Both the position numbers and the translations under genes were made by a program. This document shows positions 3,508 to 60,200 of a DNA stretch of 64,000 nucleotides, in pieces; the stretch's first letter is position 1, and each line of letters starts with the position of its first letter. Source of the DNA: an uncultured Acidobacteriota bacterium (GTDB lineage Bacteria > Acidobacteriota > UBA6911); the NCBI GenBank assembly GCA_963843575.1, contig CAWJKZ010000018.1, positions 97,195-161,194 on the forward strand. The letters run 5' to 3'. The notes beneath the pieces were generated by a model, which was not told where the DNA came from, made no database searches, and saw only the letters and a program-made list of their open reading frames with translations.

Positions 3508-3959
3508 CTTGACATATCGGGAGGGAGCGTAACCACCTGCAGCCAGAAGTGCTCGATGGACCGGACGATTTCCAGGAACTTGCTGAATTCCACGGGTTTG
3601 GTGATGTAGCAGTTGGCCTGCAACTCGTAGGCGCGCGAGACGTCCTGTTCGGCCTTGGAAGTGGTCAGCACCACCACGGGGATTGAGCGGAGTGCGGCGT
3701 CCGACTTGAGCTCTTCCAGGACCTCCCGACCATCCCGGCGGGGCAGGTTGAGATCGAGCAGGATCAAATCCGGCCTGTGCGCGTCGGCGAACTCGTTCCG
3801 CCGCCGCAGGAACTCGAGCGCCTGCACCCCGTCCTCGACCACGGTCAGGCGGTTGCTGCCCTTGGCCTCACTGAGCGCCTCGAACGTCAGATCGGCGTCA
3901 CTGGGGCTGTCCTCGACCAGAAGGATCTCGACAGGCCTGAGACGATTCGACAATGTCAT
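3504..3959 (-). CDS. Single-domain response regulator, Rcp1/BphR-like
   Basis: C-terminal part of ORF 3504..5804 from ATG 3959: [11 protein letters not shown]...[11 protein letters not shown]...ANCYITKPV...HFWL; ATGA overlap with kinase. Confidence 0.92.
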
Positions 3960-35065: not shown

Positions 35066-36247
35066 ATGACAGCTCAGAAGGTCCGGTTCGCGATACTGGC
35101 ACCATCTCCGGAAATGCGCGAATTGCTGGGCAGGCACGTCGAGGCGTCGGAGCTTGCCGTCGTCAGCGCTTCGGTCGAGGAATACTGCGCGGCAGAGGAC
35201 GACGGTCCCATGGTGCAGCTCATCGACGCGCAGCCTGAGATCGTCCTCGTCGACATGGAAGACCAGAGGGACGCCGTCAAGGCGCTTCAGCTCCTCCATG
35301 GCGTGATGCCGGACTCCTTGCTTTTCGCGTGCGGCCCGACCCAGGACCCGCGTCTCATCATCGAAACGATGCAGGCCGGAGCGCGGGAGTTCCTGCCGAA
35401 ACCCGTTTCGGCCGGCAGCCTCGGGCTGGCCCTCGGGCGTTACCTCGAAATGAAGGAGCGGGTCCGCTCTGGCCCGAAGGCGCGCGGGAGGATCTACAGC
35501 GTCACTTCGGGAAAGGGAGGCTCCGGGACGACCTCCGTCGCGATCAACCTTGCCGCGACCCTCGCAAACCTGCCCGACACCCGGGTGGCCGTCGTGGACC
35601 TGAACGGCTCGGTCGGAGACGCCGCCGCGTATCTGAACGCGAAGCCCGAATTCGGCGTGGCCGACGCCCTTGCGGCCTCTTCGAAACTGGACCAGGTGAT
35701 TTTGAACAGTTTCATGTGCAAGGTCGGCAACCTGTCCTTGCTCGCCGGGGCGACGGATTACACGCCACCCTCGAGCCCCACGCCGAGCGCGCTGAGCCGC
35801 CTCCTCAAGGTCGTCGTCGGGGGCTACACCCATACCTTCATCGACATGCCTTCGTCCCTGGACCAGGAACTCGTCAGGGTCACGCTCGAGGCGAGCGAGG
35901 CGGTCCTGGTGGTGATCACGCCCGAGTTACCCGCCATCTGGCGCACCCACCGGCTGATGACGTTTCTGTCCGACACCGGCTGCGCCGACCGGATCCGCCT
36001 GATCCTCAACCGCGACGACAGCCGCGACGAGATCAACGCCAAGGAGATATCGAGGGCCCTGAGTCAGCCCGTCTACTGGCGCCTGCCCAACAGCTATCTC
36101 ACCGCAATTCAGGCCATCAACCAGGGGAAGCCCCTGGTTGAGGTCAATCACTCCGGTTTGGCCGCGAGCTACCGCGGGCTGGCATCCGACCTGACTGGCC
36201 TCGTCTTTGAAAAGCCGCGCCGCGCCTTCGCCGGCCTCTTCTCCTGA
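35066..36247 (+). CDS. cpaE: CpaE/TadZ-like pilus assembly protein (atypical receiver + MinD-like ATPase)
   Basis: MQAGAREFLPKP, SGKGGSGTTSVAINLA, LILNR, AINQGKPL. Confidence 0.85.
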   Translation: MTAQKVRFAILAPSPEMRELLGRHVEASELAVVSASVEEYCAAEDDGPMVQLIDAQPEIVLVDMEDQRDAVKALQLLHGVMPDSLLFACGPTQDPRLIIETMQAGAREFLPKPVSAGSLGLALGRYLEMKERVRSGPKARGRIYSVTSGKGGSGTTSVAINLAATLANLPDTRVAVVDLNGSVGDAAAYLNAKPEFGVADALAASSKLDQVILNSFMCKVGNLSLLAGATDYTPPSSPTPSALSRLLKVVVGGYTHTFIDMPSSLDQELVRVTLEASEAVLVVITPELPAIWRTHRLMTFLSDTGCADRIRLILNRDDSRDEINAKEISRALSQPVYWRLPNSYLTAIQAINQGKPLVEVNHSGLAASYRGLASDLTGLVFEKPRRAFAGLFS

Positions 36248-46669: not shown

Positions 46670-46764
46670 GCCTTCGAGCCTTGGAGGTGAGCCGCAAGGG
46701 GCATCTCTGGTCAGTGAAGCTGAACGATTAAGTCCGTATGGTCCGACTTCAGACAGGAGGCACT

Positions 46765-48156
46765 ATGACCGGCCCATTCTCGAGACGCGAATTTATCGCT
46801 GCGACAACGATCGGGGCGGCGGCCGCGCCGCACGTTTGGCCCTACTTCCCGGCCGGTAACGACGGGTTGCCGGTGACCCGCATCCGAAAAATCTACCTGG
46901 CCAAACCCGTGCCGACCTGGCCCAAGCCCGATCTGAACGTCGCCGCGGAAATCCGCCGTATCGACACGCAGCTCGCGGCCCTGGCGGACCGCATGCCGGG
47001 GATCCGCCTGGAGGGAGGGGAACTCTACCGCGTCCCGGACGAAGTGCCGTCCTCGCTACAAGCGCTCGGCAATCCCGACGGTCTGCTGGTCTTCAATCTC
47101 ACGTCGACGGTCAGCTCGCACATCGAGAAGCTCGCCTCGACGGGGCTCCCGACGATCCTTTTTTCGCAGCCGTACAGCGGGCATGACTGGTCGTCTATTC
47201 CCGAGATGCGTAAACGCGGGCTCTGTATCGTATGCATTTCCACGAGTGACTTCGGCGAGATCCCCACGGCTACTCGGCTCATACGCACAGCCCACCTCAT
47301 GAAAAACACGCGCATCCTGTACGTGAACACTTCTGCGCCTGGGATCGAAACCTGCGCCCGCATCCGGGAGTGCCTCGGCACCGAAATCGTCCACGTTACC
47401 CCCGAACGGGTGAACGCCGCTTTCGAAGCCGCCAACGAGGCCGCTTGCCGCTCGGAAGCGCAAGAGTGGATTTCCGGGGCAATGCGGGTGGTCGAGCCTT
47501 CCCAGCAGGACATCGTCGGCTCCGGCCGGATGTACCTGGCCCTGCGCAAAATCATGGAAGAGGAACGCGCCCAGGCCGTTACAATCAACTGCCTGGGACT
47601 GTTCTACGCGAAACGGCTCCCCGCCTACCCCTGCCTCGCGTTCTGCAAGATGAACGACCTTGGGCTCGTCGGCGTGTGCGAAGGCGACCTCGATTCAACC
47701 CTCACGCAGCTGATGTTTACCTATGCCTTCGGAGTGCCCGGCTATGTGAGCGATCCCGTGATCGACACGTCCAACAACACGGTGATCCACGCCCACTGCG
47801 TTTCGGCGACGCGGATGGATGGGCCTTCCGGCGAGCGTGCCCAGTACATCATCCGGAGCCACATGGAAGACAACAAGGGCGCGTCGCTCCAGGTCAAGAT
47901 GCGCATCGGCCAGGTGATCACGATGGCGAAGCTGATCAACCACGACACCATGCTCATTTCTACCGGTACTATCATTGACAATCCCGAGTCCGACCGCGGC
48001 TGTCGCACCAAGATCACCACCAAGGTCGCGAACGCGCGCAAGCTTCTCGAAGGGTACGAGGGCGGCCTGCACCGCGTGATTTTCTACGGCGACAGACTGA
48101 GACCAATCCATGATCTGGCGGGGCTGATGCAGTTCAAAGTGGTGGAGGAGGTTTGA
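46765..48156 (+). CDS. L-fucose/arabinose isomerase-like protein with Tat signal
   Basis: AGGAGG RBS, SRREFI, TINCL...YPCL...CEGD, AHC, CRTK, LHRVIFYGD. Confidence 0.8.
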   Translation: MTGPFSRREFIAATTIGAAAAPHVWPYFPAGNDGLPVTRIRKIYLAKPVPTWPKPDLNVAAEIRRIDTQLAALADRMPGIRLEGGELYRVPDEVPSSLQALGNPDGLLVFNLTSTVSSHIEKLASTGLPTILFSQPYSGHDWSSIPEMRKRGLCIVCISTSDFGEIPTATRLIRTAHLMKNTRILYVNTSAPGIETCARIRECLGTEIVHVTPERVNAAFEAANEAACRSEAQEWISGAMRVVEPSQQDIVGSGRMYLALRKIMEEERAQAVTINCLGLFYAKRLPAYPCLAFCKMNDLGLVGVCEGDLDSTLTQLMFTYAFGVPGYVSDPVIDTSNNTVIHAHCVSATRMDGPSGERAQYIIRSHMEDNKGASLQVKMRIGQVITMAKLINHDTMLISTGTIIDNPESDRGCRTKITTKVANARKLLEGYEGGLHRVIFYGDRLRPIHDLAGLMQFKVVEEV

Positions 48157-48186
48157 GAGGTGTAATCCGCGGCAGAAACAAAAAAA

Positions 48187-48413
48187 GGTCGCCGCGGTTC
48201 CGTTTCCTTGCCCCGGCTCTTTCGGAATGCTCTCTCCCGCTGCCCGGGATCGAGCTTCAGTCGAAAGGCGCTACCCGTCGCCGGAGCTTTCTTCCGGCGA
48301 CACCAGCCGACTGCGAGCCGGCCAGCTTCGACCTCCTGGCAGGACGAACAAACCTGTTAAGCCCGTCCGTGATGCCTTTACCGGTGTTCAAGGTCCCGCA
48401 AACTGCAGCGACC
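48187..48413 (-). ncRNA. Candidate structured non-coding RNA (~227 nt), family unassigned
   Basis: 5'/3' closing stem, several internal hairpins, upstream sigma70-like promoter, downstream U-run, no credible ORF. Confidence 0.6.
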
Positions 48414-48420
48414 AGCTGCA

Positions 48421-48450
48421 ACTTTGCCTTGGATGGTTGGCGGGCGTCAA
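48421..48450 (-). promoter_or_regulatory. Sigma70-like promoter TTGACG-N18-CAAAGT
   Basis: Places +1 at about 48413, the first base of the closing stem. Confidence 0.5.
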
Positions 48451-48470
48451 CATTATTTCTGCTGGAAAAG

Positions 48471-48526
48471 ATATCCACAGGGCATCCGGCGGCGGATGCG
48501 ACAGGTTGCGCGGCCGCTGTGGAAAA
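48471..48526. promoter_or_regulatory. Two opposed DnaA-box-like 9-mers
   Basis: ATATCCACA (48471-48479) and TGTGGAAAA (48518-48526) versus consensus TTWTNCACA. Confidence 0.4.
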
Positions 48527-48804
48527 CTACAGTTTCCAGTTTTGGATACTGACGCCGGCTGGGCCTTCAAAACCCAGGTCACGCTTCCAGAATCCAGTGC
48601 GCTTGGCGCAGAACGGCGTGCCGTGAATCTCTCATGAGTTCATACCATATCGTGAGCAGGGTCCCGTTCTGCAGCTGCACCGTGCTCGGATAGCCCAGGT
48701 CGCCGGACGCGCCATCCTCGGAGATGACGAGCGGCTCGGACCACGAGATTCTCGGAGTCTTGGAGCCGACGTAAGCCCTACGGCTCGCGAAAGCCCCGGT
48801 CCGT

Positions 48805-49956
48805 CTATATTCGGTACTGCGGGATCTTCAGGAGCTCTCCATGCTTCAGCGCCGACTGGTGGGCGACGATGCCCGCCGAGGTGAGGTTCAGCGCGGTGGC
48901 GACATCCACGATCGGTGTGCGGTCCTCGAGGATGGCGGTGACGAACTCGTGCATGAGGTAGCCGTGCGATCCGCCGTGGCCTCCGGGTTCCACGCCCGGT
49001 GGGAGCAGCGGGCGTTCTGTCGACGGCAGGTTCTTCTCGAGGCCCTGGTACTTGCCGTCGAATGAGCCCTTCTGCCCCCGCACACGCCCCACCTCCCCCT
49101 CGTGCCCGGGAGTATCCCAGCTGACCCCCATGCGGGACGTCCCGCCACCCGTCGTGCGAAAGAGCGCGATCTCGGTTCCATAGGGATTATGGTATCGGTT
49201 GTTCGCCTGCTGAAGATGGTGGAGGCGGCTCGGCACGCCCATGCAGGAGACCTCCGTGAAGCTCCCGCCGGTCACTCCGATCTGGTACGCGTTCGAGTGT
49301 GTCGGATACCACTGCGGGGGGAGACCGACGCGCCAGTCCCGGTAGGACGGGATCGGTTGCTCCATGTAATGGAAATACTCCCCCTCGGAATAGACGATCG
49401 CGCCGAGTGCACCCGTCCGGAAAAGCGTTCGCATTGCGAACAGGTCCCCTCGAAAAAACGATGTTTCGAACATCATGTATTTGAGTCCGCTGGATTTCAC
49501 CGCCGCCAGCAGCGCGTCCGCCTCCTCGAGGGACCCATACACCGCCGGGACGGCCGACGCCACGTGCTTGCCGTGTTTGAGCACTTCGATGCAGTGGCGA
49601 GCGTGACTCGGCGCGTCGGTGGCGACGAAAATGGCTTCGAGGGTGTCGTCTTTGACCATTTCCTCCAGCGAGGGATAGCTCGTTGCGCAGCGCACGACCT
49701 TGGCTAATTCCGCGCACCGGTCGGGGAACAGATCGCTGACGGCCGCGACCTCGACGTTCGGGTGGTGCTGGAAGCTGAACTCCGCCGCGAAACGGCAGAC
49801 ACCGTAGCCGACCAGGCCGACGCGCAGTTTGCGGTCGGAGACCGGCGTCCATCTTCTCGGATCGTCACGACCCGGTCCGGACGCGGCAAATCCCAGACCG
49901 GCCGCACCCAATCCGACGGTTCTCAGGAAAGACCGCCTGGTGTTCGGATGGCTCAT
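48805..49956 (-). CDS. Tat-exported Gfo/Idh/MocA oxidoreductase
   Basis: TRRSFL, VGLVGYG, GKHVASAVP, GHGGSH; GGAGG RBS before ATG 49956. Confidence 0.9.
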   Translation of the reverse strand: MSHPNTRRSFLRTVGLGAAGLGFAASGPGRDDPRRWTPVSDRKLRVGLVGYGVCRFAAEFSFQHHPNVEVAAVSDLFPDRCAELAKVVRCATSYPSLEEMVKDDTLEAIFVATDAPSHARHCIEVLKHGKHVASAVPAVYGSLEEADALLAAVKSSGLKYMMFETSFFRGDLFAMRTLFRTGALGAIVYSEGEYFHYMEQPIPSYRDWRVGLPPQWYPTHSNAYQIGVTGGSFTEVSCMGVPSRLHHLQQANNRYHNPYGTEIALFRTTGGGTSRMGVSWDTPGHEGEVGRVRGQKGSFDGKYQGLEKNLPSTERPLLPPGVEPGGHGGSHGYLMHEFVTAILEDRTPIVDVATALNLTSAGIVAHQSALKHGELLKIPQYRI

Positions 49957-54944: not shown

Positions 54945-57572
54945 CTACCTGAGGCGCAAAATCTGCGGCTGGATATTCCAGCCGGTGACGGCCAGGGTGG
55001 CCCTGCCGGGCAATGCGCGGCCGGGATAGCGCGCCGTCACGACCCGGGACCTGCCCGGGAGAAGCGAGATGCAGTTGTCGTCCCACAGCACGGGGAGGAT
55101 CTCCTGTTCCGAACCTTCCGGACAGATCCCCAGGTGCACCTGGAAAGCGAGCCCCTCCCCCGGATTCCGCAGGCTGACCCGCACCTGGTCCCCGCCGTTC
55201 GTCTTCTCCAGCACCCCGGAGGCCTCCACGTTCACGCTCGGCAGCCTCCCGAGCGCCGTCAGGTCCTCGAAATACTCGATCGGCGTAAACGCCGTGTCGG
55301 GAGTCTTGTCCCACGCCATCTTCGACGGCGTGGCCGGCAGCCAGTAGAAATTCGTCCCAATCTCTTTCCCGCTCGCGTCGCGCAGCGTCAGCTCCAGAAA
55401 GTACGGCGTCGAAGTCGGCTCCTGCGGGAACGGCGGAATGGTCATCGCGCGCGCGATGCCGTCGGCCGCGACGTCCACCTTCGCCTCCCGCGAGAAGATC
55501 TGGTGCATACGGAAATCGAGCAGCCGCGCCGAGGCCGTCAGCCCGTGCACGTCCTCTCGCCGCGTGCTGACGACCGCGACGCTGCGGTCGTCGTACGAAT
55601 ACTGCGCGTGCAGCGGCTCGCACGCCTTCTTCGTGCCGAAGTACCCGCCGGCCGGATACAGGTAATAGTCATAGAGGTGCCAGTACATTGAGGGCCATGG
55701 GTTGTTGAGCATCCACTGGATGACGCCTGTTGCCGTGTACTTGTTGCGTGCGTGCGCCTCCATCATCGCGCGTTGGCCGTCGTACGCCATCGCCTGGGCT
55801 TTGCGCAGGTAGTCCTGCAGGTTGGCGGGCGGGCCGTACGTCTTGTTCATCGCCTCGTGCCAGCGCGACATCGTCATGAAGCGCTCGCCCGCGCTGTGGT
55901 ATTGCCAATGCTCGTCGATGGGCCACAGGTGTTCCGGCGCGAGAAACTTCTTCAGGCTCTCGAGCGGAGGGATCGCCGGCCCCGGCCCGGTCTCGGTATT
56001 GAATCCCCACGCGCCTCCCCACTTCTTCGCATCGTCGACGTACCAGTAATTCGGCGGCTCGTAGTCGTACGGCCCCGTCATTTTGACGCCGGACGGTCCC
56101 GTCACCTGCGTCGTCGCCGCAGCCGCGGAATTGATGACCGGATTCGGCCAGGAAGCCGCCGTGAGCGTGTCGACGTAGGCCTTCTCGACTTCGGCGGGAG
56201 GAGGCCCGTCGCTGCCGTTGAGCCACACCAGCATGCAGGGATGGCTCCGCATCCGCACGACCTGCGTGCGCAGTTGTTCCGCGGCGACATTCACGGTCCC
56301 GGGCGCCCAATCCGCCCAGCGCTCCCAGATATCGCAGCAGCAGAACCCGGCCATGACGAGGATTCCCTTCTCGTCGCACAGGTCAAAGAAGCATTCCTCC
56401 TCGAACATCCCCTCGAGCCGGATCGTGTTCAGCCCCATGTCCAGGACGTAACGGATCTCGGAATCCAGCCGCCCGGGTATGGGCCGCAGCAGCATATCCC
56501 TCGCCCACCCTGCGCCGCGGATGAGGATGCGCTTCCCGTTGACGAGAAAGACGCGGTTCCCCTCCTCGGTGAGTTCCGACGTGACCTCGCGGATCCCAAA
56601 CCGGATGCGCTGCTCGTCCGACGGTTTGCCGTTTTCGAGGAATCGAACGGCAAGATCGTGGAGAGCGGGGGGCCCCATCTCGGCGGGCCACCACAACCGC
56701 GGGTTCTGCACCCGTAGGGTGGCAAACTGGTCGCTCGCGAAAGTGACCGACCGCGACTCGTGCGGCTGCAAAGTCACTTCCTGCCGGAGCGGCATACGGT
56801 CCACGACGGCTTCGACGACCCCGTGCAGGCTTTGTCCCGATGTGTTGCGCAGCTCGGCCCTCACGGTCAGGTCGGCCGCGGTACAGGACTTGTCCACGAA
56901 TTTCGTGACGACCTGCGGGTGGCGTACAGCGACGGGCCCGGTCGCAGTGAGATAGACGCCGCGCCAGATCCCCATGCTCTTGTCGGGCGGCGTCGGCGCC
57001 CAGTCGACCCAGTTGATGCCGAGTTCCCTCTCAGTCGGGGCGAAAATCTCGAGCGCAAGCACGTTCGTTTCGCCGGGATGGATAAAAGGGGTGGCGTTGA
57101 ACTCGTAGATCCGGTACGCGCCCTGGACCTGTTTGGAATCCGCTAGCCTGCGCCCGTTAAGCCAGATGTTGGCGCGGTAGTTGATGCCGTCGAAGTGCAG
57201 CCACACGGTCCTTCCCGCGTATTCGCGCGGGACCCGGAACTCGGTGCGGTACCACCAGGAGCACGCGTAAGGGCTGTCCTTGGCCATCGGCTCGTTGTTG
57301 AACGAGTTCAGGCCGATGCGATAGGTCATCCCGGGGTATTTGCGCAGATTCATCCCGAAGTACGGGTCCGGGAATTCGCCCGCGGCGACCTGCGTGGCCA
57401 CAACGGTCGCGGGCACGGCGGTGCGGTACCAGCCCTGCGGCCGGAAAGACGAGGTGGAGATGACGGCGCCGCCCTCGGTCACCCTCCGTGACGATTGCAG
57501 CGACCAGGAATCGCGCAACGGCAGCGGCTGAGCCAGCGACAGCAGCAGAGAGCCCGAGATCAGTAAGTGCAT
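54945..57572 (-). CDS. GH2 exo-beta-D-glucosaminidase (CsxA-like)
   Basis: WVDWAP.PPD, GLNTIRLEG, WLNGSD, KMTGPYDY, FNTETGPG, QWMLNN.W. Confidence 0.9.
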   Translation of the reverse strand: MHLLISGSLLLSLAQPLPLRDSWSLQSSRRVTEGGAVISTSSFRPQGWYRTAVPATVVATQVAAGEFPDPYFGMNLRKYPGMTYRIGLNSFNNEPMAKDSPYACSWWYRTEFRVPREYAGRTVWLHFDGINYRANIWLNGRRLADSKQVQGAYRIYEFNATPFIHPGETNVLALEIFAPTERELGINWVDWAPTPPDKSMGIWRGVYLTATGPVAVRHPQVVTKFVDKSCTAADLTVRAELRNTSGQSLHGVVEAVVDRMPLRQEVTLQPHESRSVTFASDQFATLRVQNPRLWWPAEMGPPALHDLAVRFLENGKPSDEQRIRFGIREVTSELTEEGNRVFLVNGKRILIRGAGWARDMLLRPIPGRLDSEIRYVLDMGLNTIRLEGMFEEECFFDLCDEKGILVMAGFCCCDIWERWADWAPGTVNVAAEQLRTQVVRMRSHPCMLVWLNGSDGPPPAEVEKAYVDTLTAASWPNPVINSAAAATTQVTGPSGVKMTGPYDYEPPNYWYVDDAKKWGGAWGFNTETGPGPAIPPLESLKKFLAPEHLWPIDEHWQYHSAGERFMTMSRWHEAMNKTYGPPANLQDYLRKAQAMAYDGQRAMMEAHARNKYTATGVIQWMLNNPWPSMYWHLYDYYLYPAGGYFGTKKACEPLHAQYSYDDRSVAVVSTRREDVHGLTASARLLDFRMHQIFSREAKVDVAADGIARAMTIPPFPQEPTSTPYFLELTLRDASGKEIGTNFYWLPATPSKMAWDKTPDTAFTPIEYFEDLTALGRLPSVNVEASGVLEKTNGGDQVRVSLRNPGEGLAFQVHLGICPEGSEQEILPVLWDDNCISLLPGRSRVVTARYPGRALPGRATLAVTGWNIQPQILRLR

Positions 57573-57779
57573 GCCCCGTGTATAGCAGATTCCGTGCGTC
57601 TAGGGCACCCACTTCAAACCCGGAAGACCGGAAAATTTAGCACCACACCCTTCAGGGCCCGACTGCTGCAGGGACTCCGCGGCGGGAAGGCTTCGGCAAA
57701 AAAAAGTGAGCTTGGCACGTTTATGGCACAACGGGAATTTGCCAGACAGTGCGGGTGAGCGCAAACCATTGATTCTAAA

Positions 57780-57827
57780 TGGTACGCCTGGCTGGGTTCG
57801 AACCAGCGACCTTCGGCTCCGGAGGCC
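57780..57827 (-). pseudogene. 3' half of tRNA-Arg(CCG); integration (att) core
   Basis: Minus strand GGCCTCCGGAGCCGAAGGTCGCTGGTTCGAACCCAGCCAGGCGTACCA: anticodon loop, T-arm and CCA; D-arm and 5' acceptor strand absent. Confidence 0.85.
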
Positions 57828-58233
57828 CGTTTCGCCTTCGTCAAAAGATTGCAATAACCCTGCAAATGGTTGCAAACAGCGATCATGGCGGGTTTTCGCA
57901 TAACCTCGCCTAAGTAGCTCCGCAATCTCCACATAGCTTTCATGGGCAGTAAACGGGCAGTGGCTTGTCGGCCAGCTCGCGCAAAGCAGGCTATGTTCGT
58001 TGCGGTTCACTTTCGTTGAAGGGATGTTCGTCATGCTCGACCAGGCCGCGGTATGCGTGGACGTCAGTACTCGCATCGAAACGCCCCTCGACGAGCTCAC
58101 GTTCGAAGAGCTCGACCAGCTCGGCCGGCGCATCACGGAGTGGATCGCGCGTGCGGACGAGCTGCACGATCGGGTCATGGTGGATTTGCTGATCGCAGCC
58201 AAGAGCCAATGTCAACAGGCTCAAAGGGCGCCT

Positions 58234-58815
58234 ATGAGCGACATCCCAAAATCACTGAGATTCCGGATCCTCAAGCGCGACGCCTTCAAGTGCTGTTATT
58301 GCGGTAAGTCGGCCGAAGCCGGCGCTATCCTTCACGTCGATCACATCATTACTCGATGCAGTGGGGGAACAAATGATCCAGACAATCTGACGACAGCCTG
58401 CGCAGACTGTAACCACGGAAAGGGTCCACATCCTGGAAACGGGCGGCGTTCCGGTGCGCAGGACATAGCGACCCTCAAAACAAGCCGTCGCCTTCCTCGC
58501 TCCAAGGAAATTGCGGTTGAGACCGGCTTTGTGGGCCAATTCTTTCATTCCCGCTTAGACGGGAAGATCAAATGGCAGGGCCACGTTGTCTCTCAGATCG
58601 GTCCCGATAGATATCTCGTCCAATTGGCCTCCTGGTTGGACGGTTATCCTACTGAACGCAAGATTGTCAGCTTCGATGATATGGCAGGCTGGAGTTTCTA
58701 TCGGACGGCGCACCAAATGCGGTGGGCCGCCGCCCAGGAATTTCACTGGTCCATAGACGATTTCGAAGCTGGGGAACGCTGCATCGATAGAATGAACCGT
58801 GAGGCGCTGCTATGA
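58234..58815 (+). CDS. HNH endonuclease with C-terminal extension (frame open further upstream to 58000)
   Basis: RDAFKCCYCG..HVDHI..GG..NL..ACADCNHGK. Confidence 0.85.
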   Translation: MSDIPKSLRFRILKRDAFKCCYCGKSAEAGAILHVDHIITRCSGGTNDPDNLTTACADCNHGKGPHPGNGRRSGAQDIATLKTSRRLPRSKEIAVETGFVGQFFHSRLDGKIKWQGHVVSQIGPDRYLVQLASWLDGYPTERKIVSFDDMAGWSFYRTAHQMRWAAAQEFHWSIDDFEAGERCIDRMNREALL

Positions 58816-60200
58816 GCGACGAGACGCGCCTGCTGCCGCACTCGCTCGACGCCGAGCGTGCCGTCCTTGGTGCAGTTCTGGTTCATCCACCGGCACTGTA
58901 CCAGGCTACCGAAATCATTCATGCAGACGATTTTTACCTCGAGGCCCACCGCCGCATTCTTGATGCGATGCTGCGCCTTCAGGTGTCCGAGACGCCCATC
59001 GACTCGCTAACGCTCAAGACGGAACTCCAGCGCTCCGGAGAACTCGAAAAGGTTGGTGGTACGGGCTATGTCGTCAAGCTCACAGACGGCATTCCCGGGG
59101 CTATCAACGTCCGATCTTACGCCGAGATCGTGCGGGAGAATTCTATTCTCCGCCGGCTCATCCGTTTCGGCAACGGGGCGGCCCAACGTGCCTACGGAGC
59201 CCAGGAATCATCCAAAGACATTCTCGAGGACCTCCAGCTGGACCTCGTAAAGCTGCTGCAATCCAACAAAAGGAGCGGCTGGCTCAAAATCGGCGATCTC
59301 GTCCAAGAGGCCTATAACGAGCTCGATGCCCTCTCGCGCCGCAAGCGGACGGTGATCGGGCTCGACACCGGTTTTTCAGACCTGAACTCACTTATAGGCG
59401 GATTCCAGCCGGGCCAGCTGATCGTCATAGCCGGCAGGCCAGGTCATGGCAAGACCTCGCTCGGCCTGAATTTGATTGCCACGGCTCTTCAACATCATCA
59501 CCGCGTTGCTCTGTTTACGATCGAGATGTCGGCCCTTGAGATCACAAAGCGGATCCTCTACGCGGATGCCGAAGTGGACAGCCACAAAGTCGCCGCCGGC
59601 TACATCAGCAAGGACGAATGGACGCGGATCGGCACTGCAGCGGGCAAGCTGGCCGAAACCAATCTGAGCGTCGATGAATCCGGGTCCCTGACCATCATGG
59701 ATCTACGGTCCCGCGCGCAGCAGCTCGCCCTGGCCGGCGGCCTTGACATGCTCGTAATCGACTATCTGCAACTCATGGCCGGATCCCATTTACGCCGCGG
59801 CGAACACAACCGGGTCCAGGAGATCAGCGACATTTCGCGCGCGCTGAAAGCCCTGGCGAAGGACCTGAGGATCCCGATCATCGCCATGAGCCAACTGAAC
59901 CGCGAGGTCGAAAGGGAGTCCAAGCGCCGGCCGCGGCTGGCGGACCTGCGCGAGTCCGGTTCGATCGAGCAGGATGCCGACGTGGTGCTTTTTATCTGGC
60001 GTGAGGAGTTGCGCGGGGCGACGGACGACAACCGTGGCCAGGCCGAGCTCATCATCGGCAAGCAGCGCAACGGGCCCGTGGGCGAGACCGTAAACCTGAC
60101 CTTCATCAAACAGTACACGAAATTCGTCAGCTGTTCGAAGCGGGAATCGGACACGGGAAACAATACGGAACGTGAGTTGTGGTACCAGCAGGAATCGTGA
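58812..60200 (+). CDS. dnaB: Replicative DNA helicase DnaB (phage-borne)
   Basis: PHSLDAERAVLG, GRPGHGKT, VIDYLQLM, SQLNR, DLRESGSIEQDAD, KQRNGP. Confidence 0.97.
   Translation: MSDETRLLPHSLDAERAVLGAVLVHPPALYQATEIIHADDFYLEAHRRILDAMLRLQVSETPIDSLTLKTELQRSGELEKVGGTGYVVKLTDGIPGAINVRSYAEIVRENSILRRLIRFGNGAAQRAYGAQESSKDILEDLQLDLVKLLQSNKRSGWLKIGDLVQEAYNELDALSRRKRTVIGLDTGFSDLNSLIGGFQPGQLIVIAGRPGHGKTSLGLNLIATALQHHHRVALFTIEMSALEITKRILYADAEVDSHKVAAGYISKDEWTRIGTAAGKLAETNLSVDESGSLTIMDLRSRAQQLALAGGLDMLVIDYLQLMAGSHLRRGEHNRVQEISDISRALKALAKDLRIPIIAMSQLNREVERESKRRPRLADLRESGSIEQDADVVLFIWREELRGATDDNRGQAELIIGKQRNGPVGETVNLTFIKQYTKFVSCSKRESDTGNNTERELWYQQES

Follow-up and report, generated by a model that had tools for sequence, protein, structure and literature searches.

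Several kinds of stand-alone bacterial RNA share features with the RNA described here. 6S RNA (RF00013) is abundant, stable, encoded by its own gene and sometimes duplicated, and its ends are paired in a closing stem; its fold is a rod with a large central bubble. Ms1 RNA of mycobacteria, which occurs where 6S RNA is absent, is also very abundant and stand-alone, has a branched fold of 200-300 nt and is not a 6S RNA by fold. CsrB, RsmY and RsmZ are paralogous stand-alone RNAs with their own promoters and a terminator with a U-tail, and their loops contain numerous GGA motifs, with little conserved structure besides. Bacterial Y RNAs, whose partner is the Ro60/Rsr protein, pair their ends in a long conserved stem with a U-run behind it and may occur as several paralogues. 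The raiA motif RNA is an orphan stand-alone structured bacterial RNA. Orphan RNAs of this kind, including Acido-1 (Weinberg 2010, PMC2864571), are lineage-restricted, independently transcribed and covarying, are a few hundred bases long and have no attached mRNA.

We analysed a 64,000-nt stretch of DNA (the window) from an uncultured Acidobacteriota bacterium, whose minus strand carries an RNA with many of these properties. The RNA is of a new class, matching none of the 4227 models of Rfam release 15, which include Acido-1, Acido-Lenti-1 and raiA, and we consider it almost certain that the locus encodes a genuine, expressed RNA belonging to a new family. The whole window gave no family at the gathering score, and a search at E values up to 10 over the region and 18 homologous loci returned on the RNA only chance matches (E > 1) that differed from locus to locus, with no match to the 6S model and none to a ribozyme or riboswitch model. 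The sequence-only reading had named an Rfam scan as a check on novelty and had noted the lack of RNase P, tmRNA and canonical SRP motifs. No strong Rfam match was obtained, and ARAGORN, run on 26 loci including L001 around the window copy, found no tmRNA and no tRNA-like module. A full-text literature search yielded no description of the RNA in the portions of papers that it covers. The Soil-1 and Solibacter-1 motifs have no Rfam model, and PMC2864571 gives their details only in its supplements; the RNA may be the same as one of these two motifs.

The window's genome (G000) encodes its own 6S RNA (G000:C14:427434-427617, 71.3 bits, above the cut-off), small SRP RNA (contig C10, 68.6 bits) and RNase P RNA (C14, 301.2 bits). 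Because the genome carries a separate gene for each of them, and none of their models matched here, these three identities were rejected. One branch of the earlier reading, a divergent 6S-like RNA, is thus not supported, as the RNA is a branched three-arm junction rather than a rod and a canonical 6S RNA lies elsewhere. Ms1, with which the RNA was compared through the Rfam scans only, differs in being actinobacterial and in occurring where 6S RNA is lacking, whereas 6S RNA is present here. The CsrB-type RNAs differ in their many loop GGA motifs, as the RNA has a single conserved unpaired AGGA in a rigidly conserved fold. The RNA differs from Y RNAs in having no Y-RNA model match and no tRNA-like module; no TROVE/Ro gene was found in G000 (88% complete) or among the neighbours scanned, and a Ro/Y RNA identity was rejected on that ground. 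In contrast to raiA and Acido-1, neither of which it matches in sequence or structure, the RNA is found in one family with one to three paralogues per genome. Separately, a sub-threshold Acido-Lenti-1 match (32.2 bits against a cut-off of 37) lies at L039 487-534, ~1 kb from the divergent copy of G045.

The minus-strand letters from 48413 to 48187 agree in sequence, strand and coordinates with the earlier description. This strand has a minimum free energy of -117.1 kcal/mol, compared with a mean of -91.2 (sd 4.9, z = -5.27) for shuffled sequences, none of which equalled it (0/200); the plus strand folds more weakly (-93.1 kcal/mol, z = -3.12). In the consensus architecture, a junction stands on P1-P2 and bears three arms, namely P3, P4 with its two hairpins, and P5 (Table 1). 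The window copy forms standard pairs at 67 of the 71 consensus positions, and two covariance models match it end to end (R1, 224.1 bits; R2, 217.9 bits). Most of the stems proposed in the sequence-only reading, those now called P1, P2, P3, P4, P4a and P4b, were recovered. The TGCC/GGCA stem occurs in the minimum-energy fold of the window copy and is absent from the consensus structure, and the proposed CGGGA/TTCCG hairpin gave way to the covarying P5.

Table 1. Positions of the RNA, its helices and its flanking signals in the window
Feature	Position	Strand	Sequence	Remarks
RNA	48187..48413	(-)		227 nt, from predicted +1 G to last paired C of P1
P1		(-)	GGTCGCTGC / GCGGCGACC	helix kept across homologues
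P1 5' strand	48401..48413	(-)		pairs with 48187-48199, 13 pairs; also terminator stem
P1 3' strand	48187..48199	(-)		from consensus fold and covariation
P2		(-)	CCTTG / CAAGG and CCGG / CCGG	helix kept across homologues
P2 5' strand	48380..48393	(-)		two bulged A; partner 48206-48217; near-invariant sequence
P2 3' strand	48206..48217	(-)		from consensus fold
P3		(-)	GGACGGGC / GTTCGTCC	helix kept across homologues
P3 hairpin	48341..48373	(-)		13 pairs, 7-nt loop, four conserved G.U pairs
P4		(-)	GTCGAAG / TTTCGAC	helix kept across homologues
P4 domain	48259..48333	(-)		stem 48333-48328 with 48264-48259, encloses P4a and P4b
P4a	48326-48302	(-)	CTGGCCGGCT / AGTCGGCTGG	loop length varies
P4b	48301-48277	(-)	GTCGCCGGA / TCCGGCGAC	hairpin within P4 domain
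P5 hairpin	48230..48254	(-)		48254-48245 with 48239-48230; covarying
UP-element-like A/T-rich stretch	48451..48463	(-)		A-rich runs in most copies, judged by eye, uncounted
-35 box	48445..48450	(-)	TTGACG	18-nt spacer to -10 box
-10 box	48421..48426	(-)	CAAAGT	7 nt from G at 48413
T-run, intrinsic-terminator tail	48180..48186	(-)		seven T directly after P1

A promoter of the form TTGACG-N18-CAAAGT, placing +1 at the first stem base, and a U-tail after the closing stem had been predicted for the window copy. We compared both signals in 79 distinct full-length copies with enough flanking sequence. In 72 copies, TTGAC begins 35-37 nt before the 5' end of the RNA; in the other 7, TTGCA occupies the -35 place. 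All 72 TTGAC copies carry an NANNNT hexamer that ends 6-7 nt before the first P1 base, with a spacer of 17 nt (62 copies), 18 nt (9 copies) or 16 nt (1 copy). At the other end, at least 6 T occur within the first 10 nt after P1 in 77/79 copies. A generic promoter and terminator scanner flagged neither signal of the window copy, so the weight of the promoter and T-run lies in their position being kept across copies. Since each copy retains both an own promoter and an own intrinsic terminator at a conserved position, as is general for stand-alone small RNAs, each copy is its own transcription unit. P1 serves at the same time as the stem of the terminator.

Homology does not extend beyond the RNA and its T-run. 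When 41 related genomes were searched at the DNA level, 13 gave matches; these all belong to the family of the window's genome (G000 and 12 of its 24 other members), and none of the 16 genomes of other families matched. The BLAST query was the RNA with its flanks (window 48170-48470, minus strand), and every alignment covers only query positions ~57 to 292, corresponding to the RNA and T-run. Likewise, in an alignment of 21 copies with flanks, conservation begins at the first P1 base and ends after the T-run, and the only upstream features common to the copies are the TTGAC block and an A/T-rich stretch. RNAalifold, applied to 20 copies, predicted 71 pairs, of which 30 showed compensatory changes.

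Covariation was then tested on two separately gathered sequence sets. Set 1 comprised 32 sequences from species-representative genomes that were not chosen by pattern; set 2 comprised 72 distinct metagenome sequences gathered by the P3 pattern and then by model, so that P3 is fixed by the gathering. The results showed standard pairs in 96.0% of cells in set 1 and 95.3% in set 2, with changes on both sides of 44/71 pairs in either set. None of 500 shuffles reached any of the five measures in set 1, nor did any of 500 in set 2, and sliding the partner by 1-3 columns lowered pairing to 26.7-46.6% in set 1; the slid partner gave 28.8-46.1% in set 2. Both-side changes were found in P1 (6/13 pairs in set 1, 7/13 in set 2), P5 (6/8 and 7/8), P4 (5/6 in set 1), P4a (6/8) and P4b (9/9), set 2 being similar for the P4 helices. 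P2, with 12 pairs, was paired in 97% of cells in both sets. A mutual-information scan returned mainly consensus pairs, added one pair extending P4a, revealed a switch from U.G to C.A at the position closing the P3 loop, and gave no clear pseudoknot or long-range tertiary pair. Coding potential was considered and rejected, as copy lengths differ by non-multiples of three and none of the three ORFs overlapping the RNA has a Pfam match. The covariation results demonstrate compensatory change beyond all controls, as in conserved structured RNAs, and supply the covarying Acidobacteriota homologues that the earlier reading had said should be sought.

The helices are constrained in two ways. In P1, P4, P4a, P4b and P5 pairing is kept and the sequence varies. 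In P2, P3 and several junction letters the sequence is fixed though pairing alone would permit change, and this includes bulged A and the G.U pairs. P3 is the most conserved part of the RNA, its four G.U pairs being kept in 30-32 of the 32 sequences of set 1, and an AGGA is conserved in the junction between P3 and P4. Because the P3 G.U and P1 U.G pairs would become C.A mismatches on the opposite strand, the RNA is read from the minus strand, in agreement with the earlier suggestion that G-U pairs favour that strand.

Expression was assessed from public sequencing runs. The RNA stretch is partly present in 20 of the 24 runs listed, of which 18 are recorded as RNA, from 10 studies. Four runs were compared with window positions 47950-48650. 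Metatranscriptome runs X1 and X3, whose figures are identical and which may be one data set, each contain a 205-nt contig spanning 48193-48397 with 0 mismatches, and X5, from another study, contains a 199-nt contig spanning 48199-48397 with one mismatch. None of the three contigs extends beyond the RNA. No coverage was found on the flanks (47950-48186 and 48414-48650), which include coding sequence on both sides, apart from a single 31-nt piece of a contig that continues unlike the window. Thus, contigs from at least two studies contain the RNA and not its flanks, as expected for a stand-alone small RNA. The sediment run X11 yielded 109 pieces, about half at 90-95% likeness to the window; its summed word depth, a rough value that mixes organisms, was ~55,000-60,000 on 48214-48261 and ~20,000 on 48334-48381, the most conserved parts. 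The contig pattern fits a discrete, abundant RNA, the contigs giving neither strand, exact ends nor true level. Some short X11 contigs join the 3' part to P3 (48227>48343 and 48254>48344, with sides of 25-28 letters); tentatively, these joints probably come from expressed relatives without the P4 domain, and they were not counted as processing. The claim of a stand-alone RNA gene of an unnamed class is thereby upheld by five lines of evidence: homology confined to the RNA, the covarying fold, the conserved promoter and terminator, RNA-library contigs confined to the RNA, and the lack of an Rfam match.

The RNA was found only in one uncultured Acidobacteriota family, in soil and sediment. Model searches detected it in 19/51 genomes of the family, in 0/86 genomes of 21 other families of the same class and in 0/149 other genomes sampled across the phylum, with stricter filters, used above 40 genomes, that can lose weak matches. 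Strong matches fall in seven genera of the family. Genus g2 has weak, shorter copies (51-61 bits, 187-209 nt) in 3/30 genomes, and in these three divergent copies P5 is missing in one, reduced in the second and weakly paired in the third; some relatives also lack P4b or have degenerate 3' halves. A gentler search of five family genomes without the RNA gave noise only, and a search with filters off beside prmA in five family genomes without the RNA gave only noise and a palindromic repeat. In one family genome without the RNA, a long palindromic array with a GATTGCG-like unit lies beside prmA (L180 2372-2523, G009:C48). The RNA is missing from G003, G007 and G009 (96-98% complete) and from most of genus g2, and because well-assembled family members lack it, it is dispensable. 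Scanning one genome per bacterial and archaeal species for the pattern returned 20 stretches; every one lies in an uncultured Acidobacteriota assembly, at a place that the other searches had already found. In the viral collection, a single hit falls at the extreme end of a 1268-nt contig.

Copies number one to three per genome. The window's genome has three, at 79-81% identity to one another. In a tree of 32 copies, the three copies of the window's genus form one group, in which the window copy has the longest branch; the duplication was therefore local and did not arise by transfer. The second genome of the genus (81% complete) carries two copies, neither of which corresponds to the window copy. 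Paired copies were seen at other loci. In L072 (G019:C63), two full-length same-strand copies (916-1152 and 3689-3925) flank a response-regulator/GAF/SpoIIE-type phosphatase gene. In L048, two copies 4.9 kb apart (G017:C116:30347-30566 and 35215-35446) score only 157 and 142 bits, and the aligned copy of this pair (L018/L048) has a 3' part unlike the family, lacks the T-run and may be decayed. In the window's genome, one paralogue of the RNA lies on contig C24, ~43 kb from two same-strand 23S rRNA genes that are 2.3 kb apart (G000:C24:346774-349798 and 352095-355119).

In the window, the RNA is neighboured downstream by a convergent 472-aa ORF and upstream by a GFO/IDH/MocA oxidoreductase gene, with a short orphan fragment between the latter and the RNA. 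The 472-aa ORF (46738-48156, plus strand) ends 24 nt from the end of the T-run and has no Pfam match at E 0.01. The fragment (48579-48779, minus strand) is a 66-codon open stretch whose TGA lies just upstream of the RNA promoter region; it reads as the C-terminal part of a larger protein, matches no Pfam family, is without a paralogue in the genome, and may be a gene remnant. The 403-aa oxidoreductase ORF stops at 48805 in a different frame. Because the downstream gene is convergent and the neighbours differ among paralogue groups, a cis role is disfavoured.

We clustered the flanking ORFs of 108 hits and ran Pfam on 27 proteins. No gene was consistently adjacent to the RNA, and only synteny groups emerged, involving prmA, a ProRS-like gene, an M28 peptidase, a dienelactone hydrolase, an MMPL protein and a weak YacP-like NYN match. 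The most frequent of these is prmA, divergent and upstream in 17-21 of the 108 hits, in shared synteny; one divergent g2 copy is among these hits, which suggests that this site is ancestral. A tRNA-Asp or tRNA-Met gene lies within 2 kb upstream of 13/99 copies, all within shared synteny. The translation-related neighbourhood is a hint only, as the loci share ancestry. The prmA neighbourhood also prompted a comparison with rRNA, and rRNA mimicry was rejected: local alignment with the 23S rRNA of the window's own genome reached a score of 22, whereas shuffled sequences averaged 21.6 and 91/200 of them were as good. Each paralogue group keeps its own synteny and the flanks are not repeated; the repeated flanks, nearby transposase or integrase and unstable synteny that would mark a mobile element were not found at these loci.

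In our preferred explanation, the locus is an independent gene encoding a stable, highly expressed structured ncRNA of ~230 nt and of an unnamed class, which acts through a protein partner; as a whole, with the proposed mode of action included, we give it a little less than an even chance. The data show the gene, its ends so far as conservation places them, its fold, its copy number, its narrow distribution and its presence in RNA libraries. Judged from conservation, transcription starts at a strong sigma-70-type promoter of the gene's own (-35 TTGAC, spacer 17-18 nt, -10 NANNNT) and ends where the 13-bp P1 meets the U-run, with both RNA ends sealed in one helix. P1, P4 and P5 act as a scaffold that varies freely by compensatory change, and a partner would recognise the RNA through the P2-P3 core with its bulged A and its conserved G.U pairs. 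This partner would be neither RNA polymerase bound in the 6S manner nor CsrA. Tentatively, and with the chances somewhat against it, we propose that the stable RNA acts in trans by binding a protein, which it would titrate or scaffold. The protein-binding reading is suggested by the fixed sequence of P2 and P3 inside helices, as expected for a surface read by a partner, and an own promoter for each paralogous copy is also known in RNAs that titrate proteins, for example those of the Rsm and 6S families. Tertiary packing, catalysis, ligand binding and alternative pairing would explain the fixed helices equally well, the last of these having also been judged a poorer fit. The neighbourhood of the 108 hits disclosed no partner protein.

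Other readings account for parts of the same evidence. An own promoter, a terminator stem with a U-tail, multiple paralogues and several conserved unpaired stretches would suit an sRNA that pairs with mRNAs through the unpaired letters of the P3 loop, the P3-P4 junction and the P5-P2 junction; however, the fixed sequence lies mostly inside P2 and P3 rather than in loops, and 230 nt with eight helices is far beyond the needs of a seed-bearing sRNA, which makes this role unlikely. We consider it similarly unlikely that the RNA works alone, whether as a ribozyme, by binding a ligand or by self-assembly, in the manner of the orphan ornate RNAs. Such a role would agree with the complex junction, the many invariant letters, the conserved G.U pairs and bulged A, the very high abundance in one RNA library and the lack of a conserved protein partner, but no pseudoknot or tertiary pair covaries, searching at E values as high as 10 gave no match to a known ribozyme or riboswitch model, and some relatives do without the arms P4b and P5.

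Sequestration of RNA polymerase by a divergent 6S-like RNA, or binding of the core polymerase in the way of Ms1, is very unlikely: the RNA is abundant, stand-alone and paralogous with sealed ends, yet it matches no 6S model, is branched without a central bubble and coexists with the canonical 6S RNA at G000:C14. Still less probable is a CsrB/Rsm-type sponge for CsrA. CsrA is encoded in the window's genome and the AGGA at the P3-P4 junction is conserved, but instead of many exposed GGA motifs only this one unpaired GGA is conserved family-wide (at ≥80%), the others being variable or paired. Moreover, CsrA occurs in 13/16 genomes with strong copies, the other three, G043 (100% complete, two copies), G008 and G042, giving no CsrA match; it occurs in 17/32 genomes with no RNA match and in 3/3 with only a weak, divergent copy. 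Finally, we find it scarcely credible that there is no RNA gene here and that the sequence is a mobile repeat, a cis-regulatory leader, a 3' UTR or a chance fold. Several copies per genome and the hit on a viral-collection contig would be compatible with such a reading, but unrepeated flanks, group-specific synteny and local duplication in the tree speak against it, as do a promoter and terminator for each copy, the convergent downstream gene and covariation above all controls, and the RNA-library contigs lying inside the RNA only contradict it.

Acidobacteriota are among the commonest bacteria of soil and sediment, and to our knowledge almost nothing is known of their RNA biology. Those RNAs of such size, complexity and abundance that are understood are central parts of the cell, namely 6S RNA, RNase P RNA, SRP RNA and tmRNA, and others of this kind, such as OLE and the cage-forming RNAs, proved unexpected. 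It is conceivable, though quite unlikely, that the RNA is a working part of the cell rather than a regulator, with a catalytic activity, an ability to self-assemble or an accessory role in the translation apparatus; the role in translation is suggested by copies that sit beside genes for tRNA-Asp, tRNA-Met, prolyl-tRNA synthetase, the L11 methyltransferase and a YacP-like nuclease. Newness is claimed here for the RNA class, and the covariance model lets this class be annotated in metagenomes and its partner be sought.
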